A DNA stretch of 32,000 nt from Alkanindiges illinoisensis DSM 15370 (lineage in GTDB: Bacteria; Pseudomonadota; Gammaproteobacteria; Pseudomonadales; Moraxellaceae): contig NZ_JHUX01000008.1 of the NCBI RefSeq assembly GCF_000619845.1, positions 30,001 through 62,000 of the forward strand, in the 5' to 3' direction. A program made the position numbers and the translations under genes. The notes beneath the pieces are model-generated. The model ran no database searches. It worked only from the letters and a program-made list of their open reading frames with translations, and was not told where the DNA came from. Of this stretch, positions 1 to 30,444 are shown piece by piece (position 1 is the first letter of the stretch; each line of letters starts with the position of its first letter).

Positions 1-2665
1 GACTCAGCTCGCTAGCCAAAGAATCGGCAATCTCTTCATCAACTTCAAATACCAGTTCATCATGCACCTGTAGCAGTAACATGGCCTGATCCTTGGGTAA
101 AATATGGTCAACCGCAATCATGGCTTTTTTGATGATATCAGCCGCCGAACCTTGCAGTGGCGCATTAATGGCGGCGCGTTCTGCGCCCTGACGCACCATG
201 GCATTGCGGGCGTTTACATCCGGCGTATACAAACGGCGACCCATGAGCGTTTCTACAAAGCCCTGCTCGGAAGCCAGCTTGCGGGTGCGCTGCATATATT
301 CATACACACCCGGATAACGCGCAAAATACTGGTTAATGTAAGACTGCGATTCCTGCCGGGACAGCTTGAGCTGCTTGGACAAGCCAAACGACGACATACC
401 ATATAGCAAGCCAAAGTTAATAGTTTTGGCCTGACGGCGCTGATCATTGGTCACGTCTTCGAGGGCAATGCCCAGTACCTCGGCAGCAGTGGCCTGGTGA
501 ATATCCAGCCCCTGCTGGAAAGCACGCAGCAAGGCTTCATCCTGTGAAAAATGAGCCATGAGGCGCAGTTCAATTTGGGAATAATCGGCTGCCAGCAGTA
601 CACGGCCTTGTGGTGCAATAAAGGCCTTGCGGATTTGCCGCCCGGTTTGCCCGCGAATAGGAATGTTTTGTAGGTTGGGATCAGTCGAAGACAAGCGCCC
701 GGTGGCTGTTACTGCCTGATGATAGCTGGTGTGTACCCGGTTAGTACCCGGATCGGCCTGTGCAATCAGGCGATCAGTATAGGTGCTTTTTAGCTTGCAC
801 AGGCTGCGGTGTTCCAGCACTGTGGCAGCAATCGGGTGATCAATTTTTTCAAGCACAGCTTCACCCGTGGCATACTGGCCGCTCGCAGTTTTCTTGCCGC
901 CGGCAATACCAATTTTCTCAAACAGGATTTCACCAAGCTGCTTGGGCGAGGACACATTAAACGGCTGGCCTGCCATTTCAATGACTTGCTGTTCCAGTGT
1001 ATCAATTTGTCCGGAAAACTCATCGCCCAGTTTGGCCAGAAACCCGGTATCCAGCTTGATGCCGCAGCGTTCCATGTGGGTTAAAATTTGCGCCACCGGC
1101 AGTTCCAGCTTGAGCAGTAATTGTTCCAGTGCCGGGTCTTCCTTCAGCTTGCGGCGAAATACTTCATACAAGCGGTAAGTCACGTGCGCATCTTCACAGG
1201 CATACGGCGCAGCTTGCTCCAGCGGCACCTGATTAAAGGTGAGCTGCTTAACGCCCTTGCCAGCCACATCTTCAAAGGTGATGGTCATGTGGCTTAAATA
1301 CAGGCGTGCCACATCATCCATGCCATGCCGGGTTGCTGTTGGATTAAGCACATAAGAGGCCAGCATGGTGTCAAACACCCAGCCTTTTAAATTAATGCCG
1401 TGATTTTTAAACACATGCGCATCATATTTTAAATGATGGCCAATCTTGCCAATGGCTGCATTTTCAAAATAGGGCTTAAGCTGATCCAGAATGATTTCAC
1501 GATTTAACTGTTCGGGCGCATCCAGATAATCATGTGCCAGTGGAATATAAAAGGCATCCTGAGCATCAAAGGCAAATGACAGGCCAACAATTTGCGCCTT
1601 GCGATAATCCAGACTGGTGGTTTCGGTATCAATGACAAAATGATCGGCGTTTTGCAGCCGGGCAAAAAAATCATCAAACTGGGCTTGCGTTAAAATGGTG
1701 TGATATTGCGCCGTACCCAGCTTGTCATCACTGCTGCTGCTTTCTGACTGGCTTTCAAAATTCTGGCTAGCCTGCTGCTGGTTAGGTTCAGTCTGGATTG
1801 CCATTCGGTCCGGATTATTCGGATGTTCCAGCGACTGTAGCTGGCTTCTAAATTCCAGCTCGGTATACAGACGGCGCAGTTCTTCCACATTGGGATTGCC
1901 CAGTTTTAGTTCAGTCCAGTCCAGTCCAACCGGCAGGTCACAGATAATGGTGGCGAGCTGGTGATTCAGTGGAATGCTGTCCTGATGGTCACGGATATTC
2001 TGGCCAAGCTTGCCCTTGATGTTATCCAGATTTTGCAGGATGCCATCAATATTCTGATATTCCTGCAACAGCTTGGCTGCGGTTTTGGTGCCCACGCCCG
2101 GAATACCCTGAATACCATCAGAGGCATCGCCCATCAGGGTCAGATAATCCACAATTTGCTGTGGCCAGACGCCAAATTTTTCAAACACGCCCTGCGTATC
2201 CAGCACGCGGTCGCGAAAGCTGTCTTCCAGATTCACACAATCATTCACCAGCTGTGCCATGTCCTTGTCGCCGGTGGAAATCAGCACATGGTGGCCTTGC
2301 TCGCAGGCGCGTTTGGTCAGCGTTCCCATCAGGTCATCCGCTTCAACGCCGGGCAGGGTGAGCAGGGGAATGCCCAGTGCACGGATCACCGCATGCAAAT
2401 AGGGAATTTGTTCTGCCAGCTCAGAAGGCATTGGCGGGCGATTACCCTTATAAGTACTGGACAGTTTATGGCGAAACGTCGGTTCCGGGGTATCAAAAAC
2501 CACGGCCATGTGCGTGGGTTGCAGGCGGCGCATCAGTTTTTGCAGGGCAGACAATGCACCGCGCACGGCATTGGTAGTGAGTCCGGTAGAGGTGGTTAAC
2601 GGTGGCAATGCATGAAATGCCCGAAACAGGTAATACGAACCATCAACCAGTACAAAAGGGGGCAT
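1..2665 (-). CDS. polA: DNA polymerase I (C-terminal end lies beyond the left window edge)
   Basis: Absent from the ORF track because there is no stop codon inside the window. Reverse-complement translation from ATG (2665-2663) gives MPPFVLVDGSYYLFRAFHALPPLTTSTG, a 5'-nuclease N-terminus. At the left edge the same frame reads ...AMLLLQVHDELVFEVDEEIADSLASELS, the family-A polymerase QVHDE motif region. The frame is continuous over codons 2665..2. The three minus-strand track ORFs in this span are in a different frame. In-frame ATGs at 2680 and 2677 are alternative starts. Confidence 0.95.
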   Translation of the reverse strand, partial: MPPFVLVDGSYYLFRAFHALPPLTTSTGLTTNAVRGALSALQKLMRRLQPTHMAVVFDTPEPTFRHKLSSTYKGNRPPMPSELAEQIPYLHAVIRALGIPLLTLPGVEADDLMGTLTKRACEQGHHVLISTGDKDMAQLVNDCVNLEDSFRDRVLDTQGVFEKFGVWPQQIVDYLTLMGDASDGIQGIPGVGTKTAAKLLQEYQNIDGILQNLDNIKGKLGQNIRDHQDSIPLNHQLATIICDLPVGLDWTELKLGNPNVEELRRLYTELEFRSQLQSLEHPNNPDRMAIQTEPNQQQASQNFESQSESSSSDDKLGTAQYHTILTQAQFDDFFARLQNADHFVIDTETTSLDYRKAQIVGLSFAFDAQDAFYIPLAHDYLDAPEQLNREIILDQLKPYFENAAIGKIGHHLKYDAHVFKNHGINLKGWVFDTMLASYVLNPTATRHGMDDVARLYLSHMTITFEDVAGKGVKQLTFNQVPLEQAAPYACEDAHVTYRLYEVFRRKLKEDPALEQLLLKLELPVAQILTHMERCGIKLDTGFLAKLGDEFSGQIDTLEQQVIEMAGQPFNVSSPKQLGEILFEKIGIAGGKKTASGQYATGEAVLEKIDHPIAATVLEHRSLCKLKSTYTDRLIAQADPGTNRVHTSYHQAVTATGRLSSTDPNLQNIPIRGQTGRQIRKAFIAPQGRVLLAADYSQIELRLMAHFSQDEALLRAFQQGLDIHQATAAEVLGIALEDVTNDQRRQAKTINFGLLYGMSSFGLSKQLKLSRQESQSYINQYFARYPGVYEYMQRTRKLASEQGFVETLMGRRLYTPDVNARNAMVRQGAERAAINAPLQGSAADIIKKAMIAVDHILPKDQAMLLLQVHDELVFEVDEEIADSLASELS

Positions 2666-3203
2666 GTCATCTTTCATCATGTAAAGTAACCATTTTTTAA
2701 AAAGTAGAATTAAATTCTGGCGGGCAGGATGCGCATCAACACATTGGTTTTGTTCCAGCCGGACCTATGCAGAATAACATGAAAAAACCTGAAAATAAGT
2801 GCCACACCAGTACTACATCAGCGTGGAGACATACTGGCAAAGAACGATATTTTTAACCATCTGCCACAGTACTGATGCCAGAAATTCAGGCACAATCAGG
2901 CAAAAAACCGCATAGAAAAAAGCAGGATTAAAGTCTTGAGTATGGCTATTAATATGGAGCAAAAAACGCAAATTTCAACCCGGATTTCACGCCTGTTACC
3001 GTGGTGAACATGGCTTTTGCCAATCATTTATTTTCAGGGTTTAAACAGATAAGTGTGAGGTGAAAGCAGTGATCACCACCTAAAAACCTGGCAGGAAAAA
3101 TAAGAATTTTACCGTTTGCTTCATTTAGCCTTTACATAAACTAAATTTTTAATATATTGCATTGCGGTACGATGAAAAATAAGTAAAACAAGGATAATGT
3201 TCG

Positions 3204-6041
3204 ATGTTTCATTTGTCGTTTTGGGCCATTGTGGTGTTTTTGCTGCCACTGGCCTTGGCTATTGTGGCACTGGTGACCAGCCTAAGAACCCAGCGTCAAC
3301 TGGAACAGGACGTTAGCCGACTGGAACAACTGTTAAAAACCACCATTCAGCAGTCGCAAGCTTATCAACAAGCTTCTGGGCAAACCACAGCTACATCGGC
3401 TCAGGTAGCGGCTCAAGCAGATTCTAGCCAGCAAGTTTTGGCTCATCAATCATCAATAACCGATGACATTCCCGTCACAGCGCATTCACTGGAAAGTCAG
3501 GTGCCTCTTGAACCTGCTGCTACAGCACAAGCTAGTTCCATTGACGAGGATTTAATAGATTCAGCGCCAACAGGGCAAATCGCAAATCCTGCCAAAGCCG
3601 CATGGCCGCAAGCTACTACTTCACCTACGCGCCCACAATTGCTGGAACCGGATGAACAATCCCTGAGTGTGGTGACTTCCATCTGGCATTCCTTTTTGCA
3701 ATGGTTTAAAGGCGGTAATGCGATTGTACGGATTGGGGTGATTGTGCTGCTGGTTGGCGTAATTTTACTGCTGCGACTGGCCAATGACCTGCTGACGATT
3801 CCGATTGAAGTGCGACTCGGCGCAGTGGCGATTGGTGGCGTTGCACTGACCCTGATTGGCCTAAAGCTACGGCAAAACCGGCGCAGCTATGCGATTAGCA
3901 TTCAGGGCGCTGGCCTTGCCATAGTGTACTTTACCCTGTTTGCTGCGTTTCGCCTGTATGAGGTGTTACCGGCCAGCCTGACGTTTGGCCTGCTGGCAAT
4001 TCTGGCAATCGTTAGTGCAGCACTGGCCCTGATGCAAAATGCCTTGCCCTTAGCCTTGCTGGCCTTTGGTGGCGGTTTTTTGGCGCCACTACTGACTTCT
4101 ACCGGAAGCAATAATCTGGTGGGGCTGTTTAGCTATTATTTAATTCTCAATCTGGCACTGGCCTGGATGGCACATTATAAAACATGGAAGGTCTTAAACG
4201 TGCTGGGGGCTGGCATGACCTTTGGCATGGCGGGCTATCTGGGCTGGAATAGCTATGAAGACAGCATGCGCTGGCCATTGGAAGGCTTGCTGCTGGCGCA
4301 TCTGGCACTGTATTTGTTTATTGTGGTGCGTTATAGCCAGCAACTGGCAACCGTGCCAGCCGATGAGTCGGTACGTGTTGCCCCAGTCGATAGCAGCCTG
4401 CTATTTGGTGTGCCACTGATGGGTTTTGCCCTGCAAGCTGGCCTGCTGCATGACATTCCCTATGCACTGGCGCTGAGTAGTGCCGTGTTATCTGAATTAT
4501 ATCTGGCGTTGGGTTACAAGCTGTTTTACCAGAACCGGAAACTGGTGCTGTTGACCGAAGGTGTATTGGCGCTGGGCATTGGCTTTATGGCACTGGTGAT
4601 TCCATTGGCACTGGATGCGCAGTGGACCGCAGTGGGCTGGTCGGTTCAGGGGGCTGCACTGGTGTGGCTGGGCAAGCGGCAAAACCGCATCTGGTCAATC
4701 CGCTTTGGCGTGTTACTGGAAGTCTTAAGCACACTGGCGCTGTTGTGGTTGTCGTTTGATGGCAAGGAACTGCTGTTGCCACTGGTGGTGTATAGCGTGT
4801 GCCTGTTTATTTGTGCCTTGCTAGTGCGTAAGCAGAATCATCAAGGGGTAAATCTGCTATTAAATCTCTTTCAACCTGCCTTTTTAATATTGGCATGGGC
4901 ATTTGCGGCCAGTCAGGTCATGCTGCGTGAGCTGGAACAATGGAGTATGGGGCATCAGGTTTACTGGCCTTTGCACCACTTGCAATTTAGTTTGTATCCA
5001 CTGATTTTTATATTTATAACAATGTTGGCCAGCTGGCGTTTTTACTGGCCGCAGCTTAGCTTGTTAATCCGGCTGATTCTGGCTGCACTCACCCTGCATG
5101 CTGCTGTCATCTGGCTTGACTATGGGCATTTGCTGGTGCATCGACCACTTCTGCTACTAACCATTTTTAGCTATGCAGCCTTTGGCCTATTGGCAATTCA
5201 GCGACTTTCCCGACAGTTAATTTATGCCAATACCCTGCAAGAAGCAGCGTCTTCTACCCAGCAGCATAGCCTGTCCAGCCGTGTTGAGCAGGCCATCTGG
5301 GCAATGGGCTTATTGATCTATAGCAGTGTGCTGTTACAGGTGTACTGGATCAAACAGCCGATGATTGCCATGATTATTTTGCCACTGGGTCTCATCAGTG
5401 CTTTATTACTGGTTAAAAAACCATTGTTGCTCATTCAGCGCCACACGCTGCTGCATGATTTAAGTGTTCCGGTGAGTGTGGCGCTATTTGGCTGGATGAT
5501 GGCTGCCAATTGGCTGTCTAGCGGGCAAATAGGTGGTTTGCCGTATATCCCCGTGCTGAATGTGCTGGACATTTGCCTGATTGGTGCTGGATTAGTGATT
5601 TACCGTTTAATGATGGATTTGCCACCAGTATTGATAAAAGTGGCACAGGCTGGATTGGGTATTGCTGCATTTTTTAGCTTAACCAGCCTGATTATTCGCA
5701 CCCTGCATCAATGGGCAGGTACACCACTGTGGGAAAATGGCGCATGGCAGGTTGATCTGGTGCAAACCAGCCTGACCATTATCTGGACTTTATGCGCCCT
5801 GATACTAACAGGTTTGGCCAGTCGCTATGGCTGGCGGCAGGTATGGCTGGCGGGCATTGCCTTGCTGGCAGTCGTGGTGATTAAGCTGTTGCTGGTGGAT
5901 TTATCCAATGTGGCCGCCATTGCACGTATTGTGTCTTTTATTGGCGCAGGCTTGATTATGCTGCTGATTGGTTATATTGCGCCTTTACCGCCTGTAAAAA
6001 TAGCCGAAATTCCACCATCTTCACCTGAATCCAGGGAATAG
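3204..6041 (+). CDS. Very large polytopic inner-membrane protein (945 aa), DUF2339-like
   Basis: The N-terminus has a TM helix (FWAIVVFLLPLALAIVALV). It is followed by a coiled-coil-like LRTQRQLEQDVSRLEQLLKTTIQQ and then a Q/A/S/T-rich low-complexity linker of about 120 aa. More than 20 hydrophobic helices follow, starting at GGNAIVRIGVIVLLVGVILLL. The DUF2339 name is recalled from this architecture, not searched. Confidence 0.8.
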   Translation: MFHLSFWAIVVFLLPLALAIVALVTSLRTQRQLEQDVSRLEQLLKTTIQQSQAYQQASGQTTATSAQVAAQADSSQQVLAHQSSITDDIPVTAHSLESQVPLEPAATAQASSIDEDLIDSAPTGQIANPAKAAWPQATTSPTRPQLLEPDEQSLSVVTSIWHSFLQWFKGGNAIVRIGVIVLLVGVILLLRLANDLLTIPIEVRLGAVAIGGVALTLIGLKLRQNRRSYAISIQGAGLAIVYFTLFAAFRLYEVLPASLTFGLLAILAIVSAALALMQNALPLALLAFGGGFLAPLLTSTGSNNLVGLFSYYLILNLALAWMAHYKTWKVLNVLGAGMTFGMAGYLGWNSYEDSMRWPLEGLLLAHLALYLFIVVRYSQQLATVPADESVRVAPVDSSLLFGVPLMGFALQAGLLHDIPYALALSSAVLSELYLALGYKLFYQNRKLVLLTEGVLALGIGFMALVIPLALDAQWTAVGWSVQGAALVWLGKRQNRIWSIRFGVLLEVLSTLALLWLSFDGKELLLPLVVYSVCLFICALLVRKQNHQGVNLLLNLFQPAFLILAWAFAASQVMLRELEQWSMGHQVYWPLHHLQFSLYPLIFIFITMLASWRFYWPQLSLLIRLILAALTLHAAVIWLDYGHLLVHRPLLLLTIFSYAAFGLLAIQRLSRQLIYANTLQEAASSTQQHSLSSRVEQAIWAMGLLIYSSVLLQVYWIKQPMIAMIILPLGLISALLLVKKPLLLIQRHTLLHDLSVPVSVALFGWMMAANWLSSGQIGGLPYIPVLNVLDICLIGAGLVIYRLMMDLPPVLIKVAQAGLGIAAFFSLTSLIIRTLHQWAGTPLWENGAWQVDLVQTSLTIIWTLCALILTGLASRYGWRQVWLAGIALLAVVVIKLLLVDLSNVAAIARIVSFIGAGLIMLLIGYIAPLPPVKIAEIPPSSPESRE

Positions 6042-6053
6042 GCAGGGCCAGAT

Positions 6054-7379
6054 ATGACTTTCAAACTGATTATTACTGCTGGCCTCTGGAGCTGGCTGAT
6101 CACTGCCCATGCGGCAACGAGTCAGCTCAGCACGCCAATTGTTGAAAAAAACCTGCAAGGCGTGCAGCAGCTTGAGCTGAATCTGGCCAATATTGCAGCC
6201 TATCTGGAACAGCCCCGGCAATTATCGGTGATAGATGCCAACCGGCAGGTCATGCCCATGCGCATGATGCAACCCGTGCTTAAGCCCCAAAAAACCAGTT
6301 TTCCTTTGCAGGTATATCGTTGGCCGGCACAAGCAGTATTTAATAATCCTGCGGCCTTAAACCAGCTTCAGCTTCAATTAAAGCAGGGTGAGCAGCAGGC
6401 TGTGGTGACCTGGCCGGGCCAGCCGGATCTAAACCTGACTCAGGCTGGCATAGATCAAAGCTGGCTACTGGCTGCACCGCAATTGCCAGAACAGCCTGCT
6501 GGTCAGATACGCGCCGAAGCTTTGCTATTGAGCTGGAACAATAATGATTTTTCCAGCCAGGTGCAGGTAGAGGGCAGCGATAATCTGGTGGACTGGCAAT
6601 TTGCTGGCCTGGGGCAGGTGCTGCAAACGCACGATGCCAAAGGTCAGAAATTGCTACAGCAGCGGGTCGACATCCGGCAGTATTATCAATTCTGGCGGTT
6701 GCGCTTTGATCAGCCGCTGGCGCTACAGCAGGTTCAGCTTCAGGCCAGCTTGCCTGCCATGCCAGCATGGCAGCAGCAGGAACTCCAGTTTCAAAAAACC
6801 AGTGAACCTTCACTCCATGAATCATCACCACAATGGCAGCTTCAGTTACCGTATCCGATTGCCATTCAGAAAATGCAATTTGATGTGCCTGCCAATCAGC
6901 TATGGCAGGTAAGGGTAATGGCCAGATTGCCACAGCAGGGCCGTGAGATTTGGCAGCAAGTAGGACAGGCTGGGCTGTATCGTAACAAGCAAGGTAGCAG
7001 TACCGAAAATCAAGTAAACCAGATTGAGTTTAACCAGCCAGTAATGGCACGTGAATGGCGGGTGCAAATTGAAGCCCCGGTGAATCTATCCCGCTTGCCG
7101 GTACAGGTTTTTGCCCCCAAAACCGTGCTGTATTTTCTGGCACAGGGCACCGCGCCTTACCAACTGGTGTCTAACCCGCAGGCCAGCCGCGTACCACCCC
7201 GGTTGCCTGAAAAGCTTAATCCCGTGGGCAAGGTGCATCTGGGTAATACCATTGTAATAGTAAAGCCGGTTTCCACCCGGCAATATGGCTTGTGGGTAGG
7301 ACTCATCCTGCTGGTAGGGGTGCTGGCAGTGGCTGCATGGCGCTTATACAAAACCATGCAACAGCCGGGGAATTCCTGA
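6054..7379 (+). CDS. Secreted, C-terminally membrane-anchored protein (441 aa), DUF3999-like partner of the upstream gene
   Basis: The start lies 12 nt after the upstream stop. The protein has an N-terminal signal peptide (LIITAGLWSWLITAHA-ATSQ), a Q-rich soluble body and a single C-terminal TM helix (YGLWVGLILLVGVLAVAAWRLY). The family name is recalled from the conserved pairing with DUF2339 genes. Confidence 0.7.
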   Translation: MTFKLIITAGLWSWLITAHAATSQLSTPIVEKNLQGVQQLELNLANIAAYLEQPRQLSVIDANRQVMPMRMMQPVLKPQKTSFPLQVYRWPAQAVFNNPAALNQLQLQLKQGEQQAVVTWPGQPDLNLTQAGIDQSWLLAAPQLPEQPAGQIRAEALLLSWNNNDFSSQVQVEGSDNLVDWQFAGLGQVLQTHDAKGQKLLQQRVDIRQYYQFWRLRFDQPLALQQVQLQASLPAMPAWQQQELQFQKTSEPSLHESSPQWQLQLPYPIAIQKMQFDVPANQLWQVRVMARLPQQGREIWQQVGQAGLYRNKQGSSTENQVNQIEFNQPVMAREWRVQIEAPVNLSRLPVQVFAPKTVLYFLAQGTAPYQLVSNPQASRVPPRLPEKLNPVGKVHLGNTIVIVKPVSTRQYGLWVGLILLVGVLAVAAWRLYKTMQQPGNS

Positions 7380-7402
7380 TCAAGAATAGCCGCTTGGACT
7401 CA

Positions 7403-8344
7403 TTAGCGTCGGGGTGTGGGACCAAGTGGCGGGTTATTCATAGACTGGGCGTTAAGATTAGGGCCTTGCAGATTGTCTGCCAGCATGACAGTGTCCGGGT
7501 CACTCAAGCCCTGATGCAAATCAATTTTCGGCACCGGAATTTCAATATGATTACGGATAAAGTCATCCTTAATCATTTCCTGAATTTCATCGCGCACGGT
7601 TAAAAAATTTTCACGCCGGGTCCAGACTGCAAACATCAGCTCAATGGTGGATTCACGAAAGGCAGTGACGGTAACGCGTGGCTTGGGTTCATCCATGACC
7701 AGCGGATATTCACTGGCCAGATTCAAGAGCACCTGCCGTACCTTGCTCATGTCTTCCTGAAAGGCAATAGCCAGTGTAATAGGAATGCGCCGAATTGGAA
7801 AACGTGACAAGTTTTGTACCGGGGTGCGAATCAATTGCTCATTAGGCACCCGGATAAAAATATTGTCCACCGTGCGCAACTTGATGGATAGCAGGTCAAT
7901 GGAAATCACTTCGCCTTCAATCACATAACCACGAATCAGGGTCATTTGAATCAAGTCACCTACTTCAAACGAACCTTCACCAATCAGGAATAGACCGCTA
8001 ATCAGGTTGGAAGCTGAAGTTTGTGAGGCAAAACCAAATGCCACGGTTAAAATACCGGCTGCTCCCAAAAACACACTGAGCTTGAAACCTGCTTCACGCA
8101 GGCTGGTAATCAGGAACAGCATAAAAATGAAATAAAAAATTCCGCGTCGCCAGACCAGCCGCTGATGGGCATTAAAGCGAAAGCCAATAGTGCGGATAAA
8201 GGCATTGCTCATCAAGCGCGCCACAAAAAAACCCAGCGTCAGCATCACCAGTGCGACCAGAATATCTTCCAGACGATCGGTTTTAATTCCGCTCACCATG
8301 CCAGTAAAGGTACTTTTGAGTTGTTCTGTAATATCCAGCGCCAT
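7403..8344 (-). CDS. Mechanosensitive ion channel family protein (MscS family)
   Basis: Three N-terminal TM helices are followed by an MscS-type pore helix and beta domain: GAAGILTVAFGFASQTSASNLISGLFLIGEGSFEVGDLI...EGEVISIDLLSIKLRTVDNIFIRVPNEQL. Confidence 0.85.
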   Translation of the reverse strand: MALDITEQLKSTFTGMVSGIKTDRLEDILVALVMLTLGFFVARLMSNAFIRTIGFRFNAHQRLVWRRGIFYFIFMLFLITSLREAGFKLSVFLGAAGILTVAFGFASQTSASNLISGLFLIGEGSFEVGDLIQMTLIRGYVIEGEVISIDLLSIKLRTVDNIFIRVPNEQLIRTPVQNLSRFPIRRIPITLAIAFQEDMSKVRQVLLNLASEYPLVMDEPKPRVTVTAFRESTIELMFAVWTRRENFLTVRDEIQEMIKDDFIRNHIEIPVPKIDLHQGLSDPDTVMLADNLQGPNLNAQSMNNPPLGPTPRR

Positions 8345-8437
8345 TCATTCAATCCAGTGACCAAGGTGGTAATCAGTTCAACAATAGGGTTAGTGCAAAG
8401 TCCACTATTTAAAAAACTATAATAAAACAGGCTAATA

Positions 8438-9271
8438 CTAAAAAAAGCTGTCAAACATATGAAACAAGCCACCTTCACCAATCCGTGGTGGCTGAATAAA
8501 AGCCACCTGACCCGCCTGCGGGGGTGTACGATTTTCAATTCGGATGCGTGGAGGACGGTTGGGTGTGTCCTGTACTACCCGGATTTGTGACGTCCAGATG
8601 CGGCCGCTATCACTACAGTGAAACAGAGGCAAGGCCTGTACAGGCAGGTTCATGCGATCCAGTTGTAATAGCGTGCTGCTGGTATTGTGGAAATGCACGG
8701 GTGTTACCGCCCGAAAAGCACGTGGTACTAACTGCTTTAAGTCAGTACGGCCTTCCACCGGTGTGGCATAGCACAACTCGCCTTTAATGGTATCGGGGCC
8801 AAACCAGGAATCCTTGGGCCGGTTAATGGCAATATCAAATAGCGGTTCACGCTGGCCGCCGACAAAACCCGCCATCCAGAGTGGGGTACTGACAAACAGC
8901 GTGCCTTGCTGGCCTGCCGGAATAAAAATGGGATTAATAGGCTTTACAATCACCGAGCGATCAGCCAGCCGGGGATACAGCGATAGCGAATCACCGGTAT
9001 GCGCAAACATATAGCGTTCCAGTACGGTTGGCTCGCTAAAGGCTGTATCAATATCCAGTATTTCCCAGTCCTGCATGTTTTCATTCTGATGGCGTGGACG
9101 GTGATACTCCAGTTGCCATTCATTAATATTGCGGCTAATGCGCACATACAGCGAACCCAGCCGCCATGCCCGGGACTGACCCACCATAAAGCTCAACGGC
9201 CCCCACCAGGGTGCTAGGGGGGAGTGTTCATGGGAAGCATGCTGTAGCAGCGTATCAGGGATCAAAGTCAT
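8438..9271 (-). CDS. Conserved hypothetical soluble protein (277 aa)
   Basis: This is a long ORF co-oriented with and 93 nt upstream of the MscS-family gene. It has no TM segment or signal peptide, is Trp/Pro-rich, and carries no motif I can assign to a family. Confidence 0.6.
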   Translation of the reverse strand: MTLIPDTLLQHASHEHSPLAPWWGPLSFMVGQSRAWRLGSLYVRISRNINEWQLEYHRPRHQNENMQDWEILDIDTAFSEPTVLERYMFAHTGDSLSLYPRLADRSVIVKPINPIFIPAGQQGTLFVSTPLWMAGFVGGQREPLFDIAINRPKDSWFGPDTIKGELCYATPVEGRTDLKQLVPRAFRAVTPVHFHNTSSTLLQLDRMNLPVQALPLFHCSDSGRIWTSQIRVVQDTPNRPPRIRIENRTPPQAGQVAFIQPPRIGEGGLFHMFDSFF

Positions 9272-9365
9272 GGCCTGTATTGCAAAAATCCGGGTTTGGT
9301 AAAGGCGTTAAAAGATAGCTGAAGAAATCGGACAATAAAAGAATAGTGGCGCTTTAATCAGCCAG

Positions 9366-10895
9366 ATGCTTAGAGTACACTCATTGTTCCTGTTAATAAA
9401 AATGGAATTTGTCGTGCAATTGCTTCGTCAGGCTCAGCTTCCCTACAGTTATGCCAAACGTCATGGTGTGCTACTCCAGTTTGACGGTGAGCAAGCCATT
9501 ATCGTGCGTCGGCAAAATGCGCCCTTACCGGCACTTACCGAAGCCCGTCGCTTTCTGGGTGCGACTGCTTCTTATAAAACCGTGGCTGACGAAGAATTTT
9601 CACGCCTGCTGGCTGCCTCATTTGCAGGTGATACCGGAGAGTCGCAACAGGTTGCAGCAGGTCTGGAAGATCACCCCGATTTGTTAAGCCTTGCCGATCA
9701 GGTGCCGGAAACTGAAGACCTGATGGATCAGGAAGACGATGCACCCATCATTCGTCTGATCAATGCCTTGCTGAGCGAAGCCATTCGTCTGGGTGCATCG
9801 GATATTCATATTGAATCGTTTGAAAAACGCTTGTCCGTGCGCCTGCGCGTGGATGGACAATTGCGTGAAATTGTACAACCGCGCCGGGAACTGGCACCGC
9901 TGCTGGTCTCACGGATCAAGGTCATGGCACGACTGGATATTGCCGAAAAACGCATTCCGCAGGATGGCCGTATTTCCCTGCGACTGGCGGGCCGTGAAGT
10001 GGATGTACGTGTCTCGACCCTGCCATCCAGCCATGGTGAACGGGTAGTAATGCGTTTACTCGATAAACAGGCAGGCCGCCTCAACATGACCCATCTGGGT
10101 TTGATGAAAGATGACTATGAGCGCCTGACGCATCTGATTCACCGTCCGCATGGCATTATTCTGGTCACTGGCCCTACCGGTTCCGGTAAAACCACCACCC
10201 TGTATGCTGCACTCACTGACCTCAATGACAATACCCGTAATATTTTAACTGCCGAAGACCCAATTGAGTACCAGCTTGAAGGCATTGGCCAGACCCAGGT
10301 CAATACCAAGGTCGACATGACCTTTGCCCGTTCCTTGCGTGCCATGTTACGTCAGGATCCTGATGTGGTGATGGTGGGTGAAATCCGTGACCTTGAAACC
10401 GCTGAAATTGCCGTACAGGCCTCATTAACAGGCCACTTGGTATTATCCACCCTACACACCAATACGGCAGTTGGCGCCGTCACCCGACTAAAAGACATGG
10501 GGATTGAGCCATTTTTGCTGTCTTCTTCCTTAATTGGCGTGATTGCCCAGCGGCTGGTGCGCACTTTGTGTAAACATTGCCATACATGGCGCGAAGCGGA
10601 CAGCTACGAGCAGCAATTATTTAGCCAAGTGCAATTGACTGAGCCGTTAAAAATTCCGGTGGCGCAGGGCTGTGAGCAATGTAATCAGTTGGGCTTTAAT
10701 GGCCGTACTGCGATTTATGAAGTAGTGCCCGTTGATGATGCCATGCGACGCCTGATTCATGGCAATGCAGCAGAGCATGAGCTGGAAGCCTATGCGCGTA
10801 GTTATGCGCCCTCCATTCGCCATGATGGCTTGCTGAAAGTCTTGCAGGGTAAAACAACGGTAGAAGAAGTATTAAGAGCCACGCAGGAAGAGTAA
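9366..10895 (+). CDS. gspE: Type II secretion system ATPase GspE
   Basis: It has the N1 domain motif LPYSYAKRHGVLL, Walker A GPTGSGKTT, Asp/His boxes (ILTAEDPIEY, MVGEIRD, TGHLVLSTLHTN) and the tetracysteine CKHC...CEQC motif typical of GspE. The real start may be the ATG at 9402 (MEFVVQLLRQ). Confidence 0.92.
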   Translation: MLRVHSLFLLIKMEFVVQLLRQAQLPYSYAKRHGVLLQFDGEQAIIVRRQNAPLPALTEARRFLGATASYKTVADEEFSRLLAASFAGDTGESQQVAAGLEDHPDLLSLADQVPETEDLMDQEDDAPIIRLINALLSEAIRLGASDIHIESFEKRLSVRLRVDGQLREIVQPRRELAPLLVSRIKVMARLDIAEKRIPQDGRISLRLAGREVDVRVSTLPSSHGERVVMRLLDKQAGRLNMTHLGLMKDDYERLTHLIHRPHGIILVTGPTGSGKTTTLYAALTDLNDNTRNILTAEDPIEYQLEGIGQTQVNTKVDMTFARSLRAMLRQDPDVVMVGEIRDLETAEIAVQASLTGHLVLSTLHTNTAVGAVTRLKDMGIEPFLLSSSLIGVIAQRLVRTLCKHCHTWREADSYEQQLFSQVQLTEPLKIPVAQGCEQCNQLGFNGRTAIYEVVPVDDAMRRLIHGNAAEHELEAYARSYAPSIRHDGLLKVLQGKTTVEEVLRATQEE

Positions 10896-10945
10896 GTAAA
10901 TAGTTTTCAAAATTTAAGATTAGATAAAGCACTGAGAATACTAAT

Positions 10946-12130
10946 ATGTCAAATGACTTAAATAATTCAACTGACCATGACATACGGCTTGAGCAAAGCA
11001 GTAATATTGTACCGCTTGATCAGGACGCTATACCGAATTTAAATACGCAGATTGATGAGTTTATTCATTCAGTTATTACATTGGATATTCAGCAAAAAGA
11101 TTTTCAAGATAAAGTAAATAGTGTTCATCAATTAGGTCAGCAAACAGTTGTAAAGACTGCCGGCTTTAGTCAGCGCTTACTATCACGATCCATAAAAAAA
11201 ATGGATGATGATGAAGAGGCTAAAGGTATTGGTCAAAGTTTAATTGACCTTAAACAAACCCTTGAAGCATTAAATCCTGCCAACAATACTAGTTTTTTCA
11301 GTAAACGGAAATTGCTGGGCTTTATTCCCTTTGGCAGCAAAATAGAAGATTATTTTGATAAATATAAATCGGCGGAAGCACATTTATCAACCATTTTGAT
11401 TGCTTTGGATAAGGGTAGAGATGAGTTATTAAAAGATAACATTGGTATAGAACATGATAAAAAACAACTTTGGACACTGATGCAACAATTAGAGCAATAT
11501 ATCTATATTGGCCGGCAGCTGGAGCAAATTTTAACTGAAAAACTATATGATATTGAGTTGCAGCATCCTGAAAAGGCAAGAGTGATTAAAGAAGAAGTAG
11601 TGTTTTATTTGCATCAAAAAATAACTGATTTACTGACACAACAAGCTGTCGGTATGCAATCTTATTTATCACTTGATTTGATTCGCAAGAATAATTTTGA
11701 ATTAATTAAAGGTGTAGAGCGTGCTACCACCACGACTGTAGCAGCATTGCGTACCGCGATTGTGGTCGCACAGGCCTTAGCTAATCAGAAGTTGGTTTTA
11801 AAACAGGTTGATGCCGTTAATAAAACGACTGAAGATTTAATTGTTGCTACAAGTAAAATGTTAAAAAACCAAACTAAAGATATTCAAATACAGGCGAGTA
11901 GTAGTGTAATTAATTTGGATAAACTACAGACTGCTTTTAACAATACTTTTGAAACAATTAATATGGTCAATGATTTTAAAATTCAGTCAATTGACAAAAT
12001 GCATAAAAATATTGAGGTATTAAACCAGCAATTAGAAACAGCAAGAAGCTATCTGGATCAAAATAAGGAATATGAAGTAAAAACACATCTTGCAAGTCAT
12101 CAGATTAAAAGTGACAACGGGAACATTTAA
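10946..12130 (+). CDS. telA: TelA-family (toxic anion resistance / KlaB-YaaN-like) protein, 394 aa
   Basis: The protein is all-helical and soluble. TelA-like blocks are present: ALDKGRDELLKDNIGIEHDKKQLWTLMQQLEQYIYIG and FYLHQKITDLLTQQAVGMQSYLSLDLIRKNNFELIKGVERATTTTVAALRTAIVVAQAL. The gene is strongly AT-rich compared with gspE, which ends 50 nt upstream. Confidence 0.85.
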   Translation: MSNDLNNSTDHDIRLEQSSNIVPLDQDAIPNLNTQIDEFIHSVITLDIQQKDFQDKVNSVHQLGQQTVVKTAGFSQRLLSRSIKKMDDDEEAKGIGQSLIDLKQTLEALNPANNTSFFSKRKLLGFIPFGSKIEDYFDKYKSAEAHLSTILIALDKGRDELLKDNIGIEHDKKQLWTLMQQLEQYIYIGRQLEQILTEKLYDIELQHPEKARVIKEEVVFYLHQKITDLLTQQAVGMQSYLSLDLIRKNNFELIKGVERATTTTVAALRTAIVVAQALANQKLVLKQVDAVNKTTEDLIVATSKMLKNQTKDIQIQASSSVINLDKLQTAFNNTFETINMVNDFKIQSIDKMHKNIEVLNQQLETARSYLDQNKEYEVKTHLASHQIKSDNGNI

Positions 12131-12143
12131 TATTATTAAACTA

Positions 12144-12176
12144 AGGATTTAATTTTATATTTAATAATTAAATCCT
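12144..12176. terminator. Perfect 11-bp AT-rich hairpin between convergent genes (candidate bidirectional terminator)
   Basis: aggatttaatt (12144-12154), an 11-nt loop, then aattaaatcct (12166-12176). It sits between the telA-like stop (12130) and the stop of the 322-aa gene (12205). There is no clean U-run on the plus side, and the minus side has a modest one. Confidence 0.45.
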
Positions 12177-12204
12177 GATTCAAAGCTTTATTCTTGGAGT
12201 GATT

Positions 12205-13173
12205 TTATTGAATGTAAAAATAACTTCCATGATAGCCACCTTGAAATGTAAAATCATCTTTACCTGTAATCTCTTTGACAGATTTTTTCAGTTTTTCAGT
12301 TAATTGGTAACTATAAAAATACGGATAGTTTAACTTAATACATCCTCGACAAAAAGATTCCTCATAAGTATTAATAAATACAGGAATATCAAAGGGTAAT
12401 CCCTTAATTTTCTGGGATTCATAACCAGTAAGGATTATAGCTTTAATATTTTTGCTTTTAGTGTGTACATCCCATACAGCATTATTATAAGCATTTAAAA
12501 TCAGTATGGTTGGGGGTATCTGATCAGCAATTTCTATCTCAACACTAAAATTTGTGTATGGAGAAGAAGGATGCCAATAAGCATAATCCGCACACATAGA
12601 AGCTTGGTTTGAATTAGCCTGATTATATCCTTCTAGTGCTTCACAAATTGCAAATAAATTACGATCATCTGTCTCTTCGGTTGAAGAAGGATCATGTACA
12701 GCAATAACTACAATTTGAGCATTTTTTGCTAACTGCTTAAGGCTCTGCGGATTTATAGGTTTAGCATATAAAGCACGTTTAGCTTGATCACTGCTCAATT
12801 CTTTTTTAAATTTCTTAAATTTTTGATCGTAACTATCTTTGTCTTTTTGCCTTAGTTTCGCTAATGATTTTTTAAAAATTTGGTCTTGCTCTGTTATAAC
12901 TGTTTGTTCCGTAGAGTCTTCTTCAATATTATCTAAATTTTGCTTGATTTGTTCAGCATAAGTTTTTGCATGTGCAGCATCTACTTTAGCAATTCGTGCA
13001 GCATCTATAGCTGCCTTTAATTGTCTCTGATCGTTAGTATACCTTCCATTACTAACCTGATGCTTAATGCCTATTATAAATAAAGTTGCAATAACAAAAA
13101 TAAAATTAATTCCTATTACCATAAAAGAATAATTATGAAATATCTTTATATATAATATAATTTTTTTAAACAT
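12205..13173 (-). CDS. Single-pass membrane protein of unknown function (322 aa), paralog of the 226-aa protein
   Basis: It has a Lys-rich N-terminus and one TM helix (FMVIGINFIFVIATLFIIGI), then an Ala-rich helix (QLKAAIDAARIAKVDAAHAKTYAEQIKQ) and a K/D/Q-rich insert. The C-terminal domain shares the motifs PPTILILNAYNNAVW, AIILTGYESQKIKG and ITGKDDFTFQGGYHGSYFYI with the neighbouring gene. Confidence 0.7.
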   Translation of the reverse strand: MFKKIILYIKIFHNYSFMVIGINFIFVIATLFIIGIKHQVSNGRYTNDQRQLKAAIDAARIAKVDAAHAKTYAEQIKQNLDNIEEDSTEQTVITEQDQIFKKSLAKLRQKDKDSYDQKFKKFKKELSSDQAKRALYAKPINPQSLKQLAKNAQIVVIAVHDPSSTEETDDRNLFAICEALEGYNQANSNQASMCADYAYWHPSSPYTNFSVEIEIADQIPPTILILNAYNNAVWDVHTKSKNIKAIILTGYESQKIKGLPFDIPVFINTYEESFCRGCIKLNYPYFYSYQLTEKLKKSVKEITGKDDFTFQGGYHGSYFYIQ

Positions 13174-13219
13174 ATCATAGATTCTATTTTAAAAGTTATT
13201 AAAGTTTAATTGAAGAGAT

Positions 13220-13900
13220 TCAGATTTCATTTTTAATGAAAAATGATTCTGCATAATATTTTTCCTGATAAGAAGTAATAGCTTTCCTAGTTAATTTATA
13301 AACAGTTGTTGATATGGATTCATCCTGTGTATTGTATGTATTATGACTAAAAGCTGCACGTAATTCTCCCGTTACTCCTGTGACATGCTGAGAGCAGCAA
13401 CCACCAAAAATAATAGCATTAACTTCTGTGTTATCTTTTTTTTCAATAGTCCAATTAATAGGTTGATAGGCTATTAAAACAAGAGTAATAGGGTTTTTAG
13501 AGTTACTAATAATAACTTTAACCTGTTTTAAAGGTTGCTTGGTATTTTTTGTATAGCACTTTTCATAGGACATTTTTTCACATTCGGGAGTATACCAAGC
13601 ATATATATTTGAAATCTTTTTATCATAGATTCTGATGGCATGAACCTCAGTGTCTTGGCTTAGTTCAAGTGTGTTAGAGTTAAGCGAGTTCAGAGTGTCT
13701 TGTGCACTTGCAGCAGCTTCAGCTGCTTTTATAGCTGAATTTTTAGCATCTTGAGCTGCTTCCTGAATCGTATCCCTTATCATTTTGGCTTGGGTAACAT
13801 TAGCCTCAGTTTTATTGGGAATAGAGATAGGACGTATTATCATAAATAAAGTACTTAGGACAAAAATAGCATTCACCATTTTCACAGTATAAAAATGCAC
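13220..13900 (-). CDS. Single-pass membrane protein of unknown function (226 aa), paralog of the 322-aa protein
   Basis: The GTG start at 13900 lies 2 nt after the upstream TAA stop (13905-13903). A GAGGA Shine-Dalgarno sits within the last codons of the upstream gene. An alternative ATG is at 13879. The protein has one TM helix (AIFVLSTLFMII) and an Ala-rich helix (IQEAAQDAKNSAIKAAEAAASAQDTL). Its C-terminal domain carries PITLVLIAYQPINW, AIIFGGCCSQHVTG and LTRKAITSYQEKYYAESFFI. Confidence 0.7.
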   Translation of the reverse strand: MHFYTVKMVNAIFVLSTLFMIIRPISIPNKTEANVTQAKMIRDTIQEAAQDAKNSAIKAAEAAASAQDTLNSLNSNTLELSQDTEVHAIRIYDKKISNIYAWYTPECEKMSYEKCYTKNTKQPLKQVKVIISNSKNPITLVLIAYQPINWTIEKKDNTEVNAIIFGGCCSQHVTGVTGELRAAFSHNTYNTQDESISTTVYKLTRKAITSYQEKYYAESFFIKNEI

Positions 13901-13902
13901 TT

Positions 13903-14631
13903 TTAGTCCTCAGCTTCTATTTTAAAGAACTGATAAGGTTTTAATTTTTGATTTAAAAATTCAGCATGTAATGTAAGGCCAGTTAAATTATCAGCCAAAA
14001 TATTATCTAGCATTGTATATAATTCATTTTTGAGTAATTCAAGCTGTTCAATGAGCAAGTCTTTTGCAGTTTTTTCATCATTAATGATTCGATTACTTGC
14101 ATAGTAGCGGGGAATTTTTAAATAATTTTCTATAGTAGGTTGTAAGTATTCATATACAATTTTTTGAGTCTTATTAATTTCTAAAGAGAAAACATCATTA
14201 CGTGTTTCAGTTTGTTGATAGAGCATTAATAGTATTTGGTAAATCTCATTCAATATTTTTGTTGCACTATAGGGTAACTCAAGTTGATGGGTAATTTTTA
14301 ATTGCAAAAAATCATCGATAAAAGGGCTAATTTTATTCCGAGCATGTGAATCTTTATGTTGTATAGTTGGTAAATTCTCTGTGAGAGAAAAAACTGGTTC
14401 AGAAGTTGAAACATTCAAATCTGTAGAAGATTCTTTTTCATTATAGTTTTGATCTGAGGGAAATATTTTTACGGCAGCAAACCAACCAGCACTGTAAAAA
14501 ATAATTAGGACTGTTAACCATGACCAAGTGATTACTCCCATCCAAATCATTACGTAGCCAACAATAGTACTAATACATCCTATAAGGTGTTGGCGAGAAC
14601 TTAGAAATATTTGGGCTTGGGTGGAAGACAT
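13903..14631 (-). CDS. Two-TM membrane protein with cytoplasmic helical domain (242 aa), XpaC-like (putative TelA partner)
   Basis: An N-terminal TM hairpin (LIGCISTIVGYVMIWMGVI / WSWLTVLIIFYSAGWFAAV) is followed by a linker and a helical C-terminal domain (KIVYEYLQPTIENYLKIPRYY...LLIEQLELLKNELYTMLDNILADNLTGL). The architecture matches what I recall for the XpaC family, which is encoded next to TelA/YaaN in Firmicutes. The assignment rests on architecture, not on a search. Confidence 0.6.
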   Translation of the reverse strand: MSSTQAQIFLSSRQHLIGCISTIVGYVMIWMGVITWSWLTVLIIFYSAGWFAAVKIFPSDQNYNEKESSTDLNVSTSEPVFSLTENLPTIQHKDSHARNKISPFIDDFLQLKITHQLELPYSATKILNEIYQILLMLYQQTETRNDVFSLEINKTQKIVYEYLQPTIENYLKIPRYYASNRIINDEKTAKDLLIEQLELLKNELYTMLDNILADNLTGLTLHAEFLNQKLKPYQFFKIEAED

Positions 14632-14793
14632 ATGTTCTCTATTATGAAATTATATGAATATATAAAATAAAGTTTAATTCCTGCAATTAACTAAAGCTAG
14701 CGCTTTATTAGCGGATATAATTTTATGGCAGCGAGTGTTAGCCTAAGGGATTGTAAGTCAAATTAGCCAAACCTACTATACAAAGAGAATCCC

Positions 14794-15498
14794 ATGTTTA
14801 CCGGAATTATCCAAGCGGTTGCCACCATTGAAAATGTCACTGATGTCGCAGGGATTCGCACCTTTGTCATCCACTTTCCAGCAGGCTTTTGCCAGGACTT
14901 GCAGATTGGTGCCAGCGTGGCCATTGATGGCACTTGCCTCACTGTTACCCAAATCATTGATGCCAACACCACCAGCTTTGATGTCATGTTACAAAGCTTG
15001 CAAATTACCACACTGGGGGAGTATCAGGCTGGCACCCAGGTCAATGCCGAGCGGGCTGCCAAGGAAGGTGCTGAAATTGGCGGGCATCCACTGTCAGGAC
15101 ATATTGATTTTACCGCAACCCTTCTGGACATTAGGCAATATGACAATAATTTTTGCTATCGCATTGGTGTCGCACCGCAATGGATGAAATATATTTTTTC
15201 CAAAGGTTATATTGCTATTAACGGCACTAGTCTAACGCTGTTTGAAGTCAATAAAACTGAGCACTGGTTTGAAGTCTGGCTGATTCCTGAAACCCGCCGT
15301 ATGACCGTTTTTGCACAAAAGAAAGCAGGTGATCGCTTAAACGTGGAAATTGAACGCAGCACACAGGTGCTTGTAGATACGATTCACGATGCGCTGGATG
15401 AAAAGCTGGGTGCTTTAGCGCCATTACTGGAAAAAATCATGCAGCAACAAGACATGGATTTGGCCAGTGATCTGGTTCAAACATTGCCTAAAGCATGA
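14794..15498 (+). CDS. ribE: Riboflavin synthase (alpha subunit)
   Basis: It begins MFTGIIQAVATIENV and contains the duplicated lumazine-binding repeat (GASVAIDGTCLTV and YIAINGTSLTL). Confidence 0.92.
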   Translation: MFTGIIQAVATIENVTDVAGIRTFVIHFPAGFCQDLQIGASVAIDGTCLTVTQIIDANTTSFDVMLQSLQITTLGEYQAGTQVNAERAAKEGAEIGGHPLSGHIDFTATLLDIRQYDNNFCYRIGVAPQWMKYIFSKGYIAINGTSLTLFEVNKTEHWFEVWLIPETRRMTVFAQKKAGDRLNVEIERSTQVLVDTIHDALDEKLGALAPLLEKIMQQQDMDLASDLVQTLPKA

Positions 15499-29535: not shown

Positions 29536-30444
29536 ATGAAGCTTTTTACTAAACTCGCTTTAGTTTCCGCAGTGGCAATTAGCGGTCAAGCAATGGCAAT
29601 GCAATCAATGGATGACTCAGCTCTAAGCTCTACAACTGGTCAAGAAGGCATCACTTTAACCATTAAAACTGATGAAGTTAAAATTGGTAAATTGATTGTT
29701 CATGACAACGACGGTCTGTCTACTGCTGCTACTATTAGCCCAACTACTGCTGCAACTGCTGGCGGTACAGCGACTGGTGGTGGTATCACTGTAAATGGCG
29801 TAAGCGTTAAAGTGGATACTACTAGTCCATTTGCTTTGGCATCAGCTGGTGCTCGTGCTGCACTGGGCTTAACCAATGACGTATTGGCAATTGTAAAAGT
29901 TGACGCTGACGCTGGTGCTGGCGGTACTGCTCCAGTTCTGAACGTAAACATGCTGAACAATGCTATGGCTATCCATGTTGACAGCATTGGTGTTGGTGCT
30001 TCTAACAGCGTAGCTTCAATGGCTGGTAAAGCACGTCGTGGTGTAACTAGTGAAGTTTCCCTGATTGAAAACGTTGATCTGACTATTGGTGCCAGTGCAC
30101 TGAACATTCAACTGGGTAATCAGCCACAAGGCGCTATGATTGCTGCTAACGGTGTAATTGGTGGCGGTATCCGTATTGCTAACCTGACTGTTAACGACAA
30201 TGTTGGTGGTGGTCAAGTTGGTATTCAGAACATGGCAATTACCAGTGCTGACAGCACTAACCTGACTGTTAATACACTGATTGGTGTAAACAACCAAGGT
30301 CTGTCTATCAAATCAACTGGTGCTAACGACATCTACATGGGTTCCATCAAACTGGGTGATCTTTCTACTGCTGCTTCTTTAGGTTCTATCGAAATTCAGG
30401 GTATGGAAATGGTTAACTCTGAAATTCTGGTATCTGGCCACTAA
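29536..30444 (+). CDS. Secreted Gly/Ala/Thr/Asn-rich protein, FilA / DUF6160-like putative pilus-system subunit (paralog 1, 302 aa)
   Basis: A strong SD (gtaggagag) precedes the gene. The signal peptide is MKLFTKLALVSAVAISGQAMA. Conserved motifs are SMDDSALSSTTGQEGIT, HDNDG, VKVDADAG, PVLNVN and NIQLGNQPQGAMIA, and the C-terminus is ...ILVSGH. There is no Cys. The FilA/DUF6160 name is recalled from Acinetobacter annotations. Confidence 0.75.
   Translation: MKLFTKLALVSAVAISGQAMAMQSMDDSALSSTTGQEGITLTIKTDEVKIGKLIVHDNDGLSTAATISPTTAATAGGTATGGGITVNGVSVKVDTTSPFALASAGARAALGLTNDVLAIVKVDADAGAGGTAPVLNVNMLNNAMAIHVDSIGVGASNSVASMAGKARRGVTSEVSLIENVDLTIGASALNIQLGNQPQGAMIAANGVIGGGIRIANLTVNDNVGGGQVGIQNMAITSADSTNLTVNTLIGVNNQGLSIKSTGANDIYMGSIKLGDLSTAASLGSIEIQGMEMVNSEILVSGH

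Follow-up and report, generated by a model that had tools for sequence, protein, structure and literature searches.

What is an AT-rich run of four genes doing between gspE and ribE in Alkanindiges illinoisensis DSM 15370, and how did it come to be there? The interval occupies positions 10896-14793 of the 32,000-nucleotide stretch of contig NZ_JHUX01000008.1 that was analyzed here (the window). It encodes a TelA-family protein on the plus strand that converges on a minus-strand operon for a protein of 242 aa with two transmembrane helices (2-TM) and two bitopic proteins of 226 and 322 aa, referred to as the short and the long twin. We argue that the interval is a cassette in which TelA is combined with membrane partners, and that the domain at the C terminus of the twins is probably a remote relative of the orphan domain of the vertebrate proteins betaglycan and endoglin. 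Our preferred reading, which we hold tentatively, is that the cassette is a module for envelope protection whose sensing takes place outside the cell and whose action takes place inside it; we lean toward a role in biological conflict.

The composition of the interval sets it apart from its surroundings. Its G+C content is 31.2%, compared with 47.6% in the remaining window, and is the lowest of all 3.9-kb stretches there; the fall starts at the gspE stop codon, which forms the left edge of the island. The four island genes have a G+C at third codon positions (GC3) of 0.18-0.27, as against 0.45-0.50 in gspE, ribE, and the CN-hydrolase and STAS genes, confirming the contrast with the flanks at the level of codon composition. 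An earlier note on this DNA had estimated by eye that the interval was about one third G+C and its two neighbors about half, and had described a TelA gene facing a three-gene operon of 242, 226, and 322 aa; both the computed values and the open reading frame (ORF) calls bear this out. The same note had reported no integrase, tRNA, or flanking direct repeat, and the searches agree: a tRNA search of the window found none, no convincing direct repeats flank the island, and there is no integrase-sized ORF inside the interval, which is filled by the four genes. The interval is a genomic island by composition and by its presence or absence in close relatives, described below, and one in which the mobility signatures (integrase, tRNA target, and direct repeats) were not found.

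Presence and absence were examined in 80 Moraxellaceae loci from a scan of gspE with one genome per species. Two close relatives have empty sites in which ribE directly follows gspE, namely Alkanindiges sp. WGS2144 (locus L008; gspE 97% identical to that of the window; spacer of 21 bp) and the metagenome-assembled genome (MAG) OH_PBrB_6 (L009; 94%; spacer of ~70 bp). Neither TelA nor any other island gene was found at this site in the other loci of the 80, which include Acinetobacter and Moraxella. Comparison of the gspE-ribE region among relatives thus gives variable presence, and the island is accessory, not core.

Related loci were reached through homologs of the 242-aa protein. The module lies beside gspE in five further loci of the Alkanindiges lineage (metagenome contigs L001, L002/L003, and L006/L007), and gspE of the window is 96% identical to that of L002 and 92% identical to that of L001. 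The synteny of the window is reproduced in L002, which reads ribE, a 233-aa 2-TM protein, bitopic proteins of 262 and 223 aa, convergent TelA, gspE, DUF432, and MscS. L004 retains at least the 2-TM gene beside ribE before the contig ends, and L093 holds a more distant version with a TelA that is 62% identical, a 2-TM protein that is 42% identical, and one bitopic gene only. The order of a 2-TM gene, one or two bitopic genes, and convergent TelA recurs in L001, L002/L003, L006/L007, and L093. In L001, L006, and L007, ribE is not found at this place; instead, a block of ~8 kb (~600-9600, ~1400-9700, and ~190-8470, respectively) lies between a CN-hydrolase gene and the island, with the CN-hydrolase end seen in L006 and L007 and L001 ending before that point is reached. 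The products of the block are HvfC/MbnB-like proteins, DoxX, an extracytoplasmic function (ECF) sigma factor with a zf-HC2 anti-sigma factor, a HisKA_3/GerE two-component system, and unknown proteins.

A neighbor-joining tree of gspE and the DUF432 gene (748 aa) paired the window with L002 (71% bootstrap) and the two empty-site loci with each other (68%). Those four loci form one clade (100%), and the island-bearing L001 is sister to them (100%). Because the deepest branch, L001, carries the island, the most parsimonious history is a single gain at the root of the clade followed by one clean loss, with only moderate support for the internal nodes. The earlier note had read the interval as horizontally acquired. 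That reading stands in that the interval is compositionally foreign and accessory, but the occurrence of the module in L001, L002/L003, and L006/L007 shows that it is neither recent nor strain specific. These data indicate that the interval is an old accessory cassette of the Alkanindiges clade, probably of foreign origin.

The components of the cassette that are predicted to face outward are the twins. The long twin has an N-terminal transmembrane (TM) helix, a Lys/Ala/Gln-rich linker, and a four-Cys C-terminal domain (residues ~152-322, bases 12208-12720); the short twin has an N-terminal TM helix, an Ala-rich linker, and a version of the domain without the CxxC insert (residues ~74-226, bases 13223-13681). 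The two proteins are 29% identical over 86 aa by BLASTP (E 1e-5) and both match one family hidden Markov model (HMM), as expected from the previous suggestion that they are paralogs. The topology proposed at the same time also fits the predictions, in which a helical bundle of the 242-aa protein would be cytoplasmic and each twin would present a Cys-bearing domain outward from a single N-terminal TM helix. In L002, the ortholog of the long twin is the 262-aa gene (34% identical), and the short twin is 43% identical to the 223-aa gene; the order of short and long types is reversed between the window (12205-13900) and L002 (10699-12191). L001 has a truncated twin copy of 110 aa (11723-12055). 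In the first bitopic position, L006 (10511-11146, plus strand) has a 211-aa gene whose TM helix and Ala-rich linker are shared with the twins but whose Cys-rich C-terminal domain is unrelated; judged from the sequence, this looks like a swap of the periplasmic module. The TM-helix motif (I/V)NxIFxxxTLxMI is common to all of the bitopic paralogs, the L006 gene included. Turnover of the outward parts in the manner of cassettes, while the TM motif stays, points to a partner inside the membrane, for which the 2-TM protein would be the obvious candidate.

Word-index searches with the 322-aa and 226-aa proteins returned only the queries, and exhaustive HMMER searches were therefore needed to place their shared domain. 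A profile of the two window domains matched 907 cluster representatives at E <= 1e-3, of which 179 reached E <= 1e-10, and the domain is not covered by any Pfam model. It had previously been called unassigned, which holds with respect to Pfam, but it is not an orphan because the family comprises at least 907 clusters. In most members (proteins P0010-P0157; metagenome loci L098-L166), 1-7 copies of the domain follow a signal sequence or TM helix. The domain is also found in giant proteins with Big and Calx-beta domains and in fusions with ankyrin repeats, LprI, DUF2339, and AAA_35. Twelve of the top 157 members are fusions in which ECF sigma regions (r2 and r4) and a TM helix are followed by 2-5 copies of the domain (mostly 3-5), and this position after the TM helix argues for an outward-facing sensory role. 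The arrangement resembles ECF sigma factors with TM anti-sigma-like sensors; unlike those systems, the island encodes no sigma factor, and its proposed output is the 2-TM protein and TelA, not transcription. A weak match to DUF6225 in one member was rejected, as it was not reproduced across the others. The contexts of the more distant bitopic members were mostly short contigs that carry little information.

Within the window, a DUF2339-DUF3999 gene pair (3204-6041 and 6054-7379, both on the plus strand) is located ~5 kb upstream of the island, and a DUF2339 protein is elsewhere C-terminally fused to the twin domain (P0121; L100 and L104 5172-8528). This proximity may be coincidence or a second functional link.

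The structure of the domain suggested its wider kinship. An AlphaFold2 (AF2) model of the domain from the 322-aa protein, built with 45 family sequences, had a predicted local distance difference test score (pLDDT) of 89.3 and a predicted template modeling score (pTM) of 0.80. When this model was compared with the PDB by Foldseek, the top eight matches were all betaglycan or endoglin orphan domains, with probabilities of 0.30-0.99 (six at 0.85-0.99), E values of 0.03-1.2, and TM-scores of 0.38-0.46 (TMq 0.31-0.46); matches below the top eight had probabilities of 0.11 or less, and the same domain found nothing among viral structures. Sequence profiles led independently to the same proteins. 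Profile A10, made from the repeat units of large multi-copy proteins, matched the zebrafish and rat betaglycan orphan domains (6mzn, E 2.1e-6; 9b9f, E 7.6e-6; 9fdy, E 9.5e-5) in stretches in both subdomains, with the core motif KPvvLvLtSYxxvxWkvk aligned with KPLVFILNSPQPILWKVR. The broader profile A5 gave E values of 0.005-0.009, and the narrow profile A9 gave no match; we take the link as real but remote.

Both fold and sequence-profile similarity are therefore found between the twin domain and the orphan domain of betaglycan (TGFBR3) and endoglin, which share an outward location, a beta-rich fold with one main helix, and conserved cysteines. The likeness has limits: the TM-scores are only moderate, and no more than ~25-55 residues make up the core that aligns in sequence. 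In contrast to the duplicated, circularly permuted pair of betaglycan and endoglin, each window protein has a single unit, the repeats elsewhere in the family are simple tandem ones, and no zona pellucida (ZP) module was detected by Pfam. We regard remote homology of the two domains as probable rather than proven. The endoglin structure paper described the orphan-domain fold as new and without homologs (PMC5464963), and a non-exhaustive literature search gave no account of prokaryotic relatives; to all appearances, no bacterial relative of the betaglycan/endoglin orphan domain had been reported before the twin domain.

The assignment of the plus-strand gene to the TelA family, made in the earlier note, is secure. 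The protein matches the Pfam toxic anion resistance family over nearly the whole profile (positions 6-331 of 332) and above the curated cut-off of 30 bits, and no TM helix was noted in its sequence. It is 87% identical to its counterpart in L002, 80% to that in L006, and 78% to that in L001. No sequence relative was found among solved structures, scanning the genome collection with a TelA pattern gave no match, and the exact TelA sequence was absent from the contig index. Searching plasmids by tblastn at E 1e-5 recovered no IncP plasmid; the best plasmid match was from Sphaerotilus (45% identity), and the neighbors of TelA on Sphaerotilus, Vibrio, Arthrobacter, and Methanosphaera plasmids were vWA or other hypothetical proteins, not the module. 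The perfect 11-bp hairpin previously reported where the two arms of the island meet is present and, across 12145..12176, folds with -13.2 kcal/mol (z = -2.55 against shuffled sequence). It lacks a T-run and, from its sequence, may act as a weak terminator in both directions.

The first gene of the operon encodes the 2-TM protein. In its AF2 model, residues 13-31 and 38-56 form TM helices, residues 59-100 are a disordered linker, and residues 103-229 fold into a bundle of four to five helices that is predicted to face the cytoplasm. Six homologs were found, 56%-61% identical and seen only in the Alkanindiges lineage. Translation of this gene appears to be tied to that of the short twin: the junction reads GAGGAC-TAA-AA-GTG, with the GTG start 2 nt past the stop, which supports the tight coupling proposed earlier. 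The 2-nt gap between the 2-TM gene and the first bitopic gene is also found in L001, and in other loci the genes overlap by 4, 1, and 11 nt.

The 242-aa protein had been labeled XpaC-like, a label that is without sequence support. The protein has no Pfam match (E <= 1) and no NCBIfam match, and PF10112 (XpaC) was matched by none of the seven family members even at E <= 10. Compared with the PDB by Foldseek, the 2-TM model found generic helical bundles only. On a Bacillus plasmid, the neighbor of TelA is DUF3974, not XpaC, and its hhalign probability against the 2-TM family is 0.1. The architecture and context nonetheless resemble those of XpaC, with a modeled N-terminal TM hairpin, a predicted cytoplasmic helical domain, and telA nearby, so the likeness would be one of architecture and not proof of homology.

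In Firmicutes, functional pairing of XpaC and TelA is supported by the literature (PMC6811118, PMC12791056). In B. subtilis (xpaC-yaaN), L. monocytogenes (lmo1966-lmo1967), and E. faecium (xpaC-telA), as in the island, a gene of the TelA (YaaN) family lies beside one for a small membrane protein with N-terminal TM helices and a helical soluble part. These pairs have been linked to tolerance of membrane-active agents (PMC6811118, PMC12791056): xpaC-telA influences daptomycin binding and resistance in E. faecium (PMC6811118), and a Listeria telA mutant with raised sensitivity to nisin and tellurite is cited in PMC12791056. The cassette departs from the Firmicute pairs in several ways: its 242-aa protein has no match to the Pfam model of XpaC, its genes are convergent and not in one operon, one or two bitopic proteins with periplasmic domains are added, and the host is Gram-negative.

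The cassette does not evolve uniformly. Nonsynonymous divergence (dN) between the window and L002 is 0.027 for gspE, 0.072 for ribE, and 0.071 for TelA, and rises to 0.32 for the 2-TM gene, 0.45 for the short twin, and 0.74 for the long twin. The membrane proteins thus have a dN 4-10 times that of TelA and the flanking genes.

The position of the cassette also bears on its role. Loci L016-L061 and L087 show what Acinetobacter carries immediately after gspE (~9.5-16 kb in the numbering of each locus): the CN-hydrolase gene lies 40 bp to 6.7 kb from gspE, and the cargo in between has a G+C content of 0.28-0.37. This cargo includes bSEFIR (E 4.6e-76), TmtA of Tiamat (1016 bits), PDC-S46 (E 8e-238), and a PAAR-motif protein (examples in Table 1), with bSEFIR, TmtA, and PDC-S46 in the slot of three different Acinetobacter species. 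The slot downstream of gspE is a variable hotspot for defense genes across Moraxellaceae, and the TelA module sits at the equivalent position, as a member of a defense island would. Location-type evidence has earlier led to new defense systems. Because the Acinetobacter slot carries known defense genes, it offers indirect support, by location, for the conflict-related idea.

Table 1. Features of the gspE-ribE interval and its anchors in the window, with cargo examples from Acinetobacter loci in locus coordinates
Feature	Coordinates	Strand	Basis
gspE, type II secretion ATPase, left anchor	9366..10895	+	Pfam T2SSE E 2.9e-155, plus GSPE_N1E
TelA-family protein, 394 aa	10946..12130	+	Pfam PF05816 E 2.5e-79, 267.2 bits
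Perfect 11-bp A+T-rich hairpin between convergent genes	12145-12155 with 12166-12176	.	Sequence, folding
Long twin, 322 aa	12205..13173	-	Family HMM E 1.5e-51
Short twin, 226 aa, GTG start	13220..13900	-	Family HMM E 7.6e-41
2-TM protein, 242 aa, first gene of the minus-strand operon	13903..14631	-	AF2 model, homologs
Intergenic region upstream of the minus-strand operon, expected to hold the operon promoter	14632..14793	.	Aligned with the empty sites L009 and L008
ribE, riboflavin synthase, right anchor	14794..15498	+	Pfam Lum_binding E 1.9e-40
Acinetobacter cargo examples	L028 9851-10798; L022 9559-12750; L041 9602-11809; L087 9778-10305		

We propose that the cassette would form a three-layer module that spans the inner membrane, made up of bitopic proteins, the 2-TM protein, and cytoplasmic TelA. 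In the first layer, one or two bitopic proteins would use their shared TM helix to anchor a periplasmic binding domain related to the orphan domain. The second layer would be the 2-TM protein with its predicted cytoplasmic bundle, whose translation is tightly coupled to that of the first bitopic gene, and the third would be the convergently encoded TelA. The periplasmic domains may bind an agent from outside or some mark of an injured envelope; a phage component, a bacteriocin, and a membrane-active compound are candidates. The conserved TM helix could then pass the signal on, inside the membrane, to the 2-TM protein, the cytoplasmic bundle of which would recruit or release TelA at the inner membrane face, where TelA would protect or remodel the membrane.

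This membrane role for TelA follows what has been proposed for Ter systems, and the XpaC-TelA pairs of Firmicutes hint at it too. One proposal has TelA building sub-membrane structures as an obstacle to the entry of phages or xenobiotics (PMC7824862). The RK2/IncP kilA-telA-telB (klaABC) and Ter (terZABCDEF) loci for resistance to tellurite, phages, and colicins resemble the cassette in containing, or being associated with, a TelA-family protein and in being plasmid borne or accessory. The cassette differs from Ter in that no TerB, TerC, TerD, or vWA Pfam domain was found in the island genes or the scanned flanks (3204-9271 and 14794-15498). By Ter and vWA Pfam models and tblastn against IncP plasmids, it does not belong to Ter or RK2 klaABC; KlaA and TelB were not themselves compared.

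The fast evolution of the outward parts, the swapping of cassettes, and the hotspot location together make a conflict role, such as exclusion of phages or toxins, somewhat likelier than abiotic tolerance. Several results weigh against the proposed module. Unlike known defense systems, the module has no known anti-phage activity, and none of the four island proteins matched a PADLOC 2.0 model at E <= 0.1. No homolog of TelA or of the 2-TM protein was found in phages by tblastn. No gene has a dN/dS above 1, values that are rough because dS is saturated. The 2-TM model, from a seven-sequence alignment, is moderately confident (pLDDT 69.8). In all related loci, as in the window, TelA and the 2-TM operon are on opposite strands, so that TelA is co-located, and not co-transcribed, with the operon. 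The association of the twin domain with TelA did not recur outside this lineage: neither a TelA nor a 2-TM gene lies within 8 kb of the domain in any of 69 metagenome loci (27 groups at 70% identity), and clustering of the neighbors of these 69 copies revealed no partner shared across groups. The linkage of domain and TelA is thus one of a single clade.

The strongest competitor to envelope protection with a conflict role is a general module for abiotic envelope or toxic-anion stress, a Gram-negative counterpart of XpaC-TelA that senses the state of the envelope. We consider it unlikely, although it agrees with TelA-family membership, with the resemblance of the 2-TM and helical-bundle architecture near TelA to XpaC-TelA (PMC6811118, PMC12791056), with neighbors that include MscS, MlaA, and an RsbU/STAS-type stress cluster, and with the lack of a PADLOC match. 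A housekeeping module would not be expected to be patchy in close relatives, strongly AT-rich, and located inside a defense hotspot, nor does such a role sit well with outward-facing parts that evolve 4-10 times faster in dN.

It is appreciably less likely that the genes are not one system, TelA and the operon being independent hotspot cargo, or the operon having the type II secretion system or DUF2339 as its partner instead. The convergent transcription units are consistent with this separation, as are a domain family without TelA linkage elsewhere, the fusions of the domain to DUF2339 in other organisms, and the DUF2339 gene 5 kb upstream. However, every island-bearing locus has, in the same order, TelA, a 2-TM gene, and one or more bitopic genes with the domain, and this co-occurrence holds in the divergent L093 and where the ribE side is rearranged.

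The origin of the island has its own alternatives. The island is AT-rich in its relatives too, L001 and L002 included, and the retention of this composition across saturated synonymous divergence means that it has not drifted toward that of the host; selection, silencer binding, or repeated exchange of cassettes are possible reasons. It could be, then, that the low G+C is not foreign at all but marks an ancestral locus kept AT-rich by local selection (for example, silencer binding), with the empty sites as deletions, and the tree is compatible with one ancient presence and one loss. We think this improbable, as the module is absent from the sampled outgroups (Moraxellaceae MAGs L010-L013, Acinetobacter, and Moraxella) and the equivalent slot elsewhere holds unrelated low-GC mobile cargo, which together argue for acquisition at some time. 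A recent, strain-specific insertion, suggested by the G+C and GC3 contrast and the clean empty sites in two close relatives, is largely refuted and the least probable of these alternatives, given that at least four other lineages, with a flank dS to the window of at least 1, share the module at this gspE junction, that the basal lineage L001 carries it, that island proteins have diverged as much as the flanks or more, and that no integrase, tRNA, or direct repeat is present.

The preferred reading, an envelope-protection module with outside-in sensing, has a more specific form that is possible but on balance doubtful: a new TelA-based envelope defense against phages or bacteriocins whose periplasmic sensor is truly homologous to the vertebrate betaglycan/endoglin orphan domain. 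If it is true, the orphan domain would gain a prokaryotic, single-unit relative and TelA would be tied to a defined outside-in sensing pathway. The cassette itself is a variation on the theme of TelA plus a membrane partner, and its domain family, large, without a Pfam model, and used by ECF-sigma fusions too, merits a description of its own. TelA proteins are widespread and are linked to nisin, daptomycin, and tellurite resistance; the cassette offers a compact genetic handle on them, with a membrane adaptor and fast-evolving outward binding proteins, that is directly testable. The hotspot downstream of gspE is a practical place to seek new defense cargo in Moraxellaceae.

Some smaller features of the borders were also recorded. 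A hairpin of the ancestral gspE-ribE spacer, seen in L009, persists as a remnant on the ribE side of the island at ~14737-14759, where GCTTGCCTAAGGATTGGCAAGC of L009 corresponds to TTAGCCTAAGGGATTGTAAGTC of the window. Consensus scans for promoters and terminators performed no better than on shuffled sequence, and no promoter was assigned; an Rfam scan of the island gave no match. At the right junction, a possible degenerate copy of the 3' end of gspE (GCAGGAAGAGTAAG versus GCAGCGAGTGTTAG) was considered as a target-site repeat and rejected as too weak. The window has a second low-GC patch, with 37%-40% G+C at 28.5-30 kb, which overlaps tandem paralogous DUF6160 genes (29536-30444 and 30495-31388, both on the plus strand).

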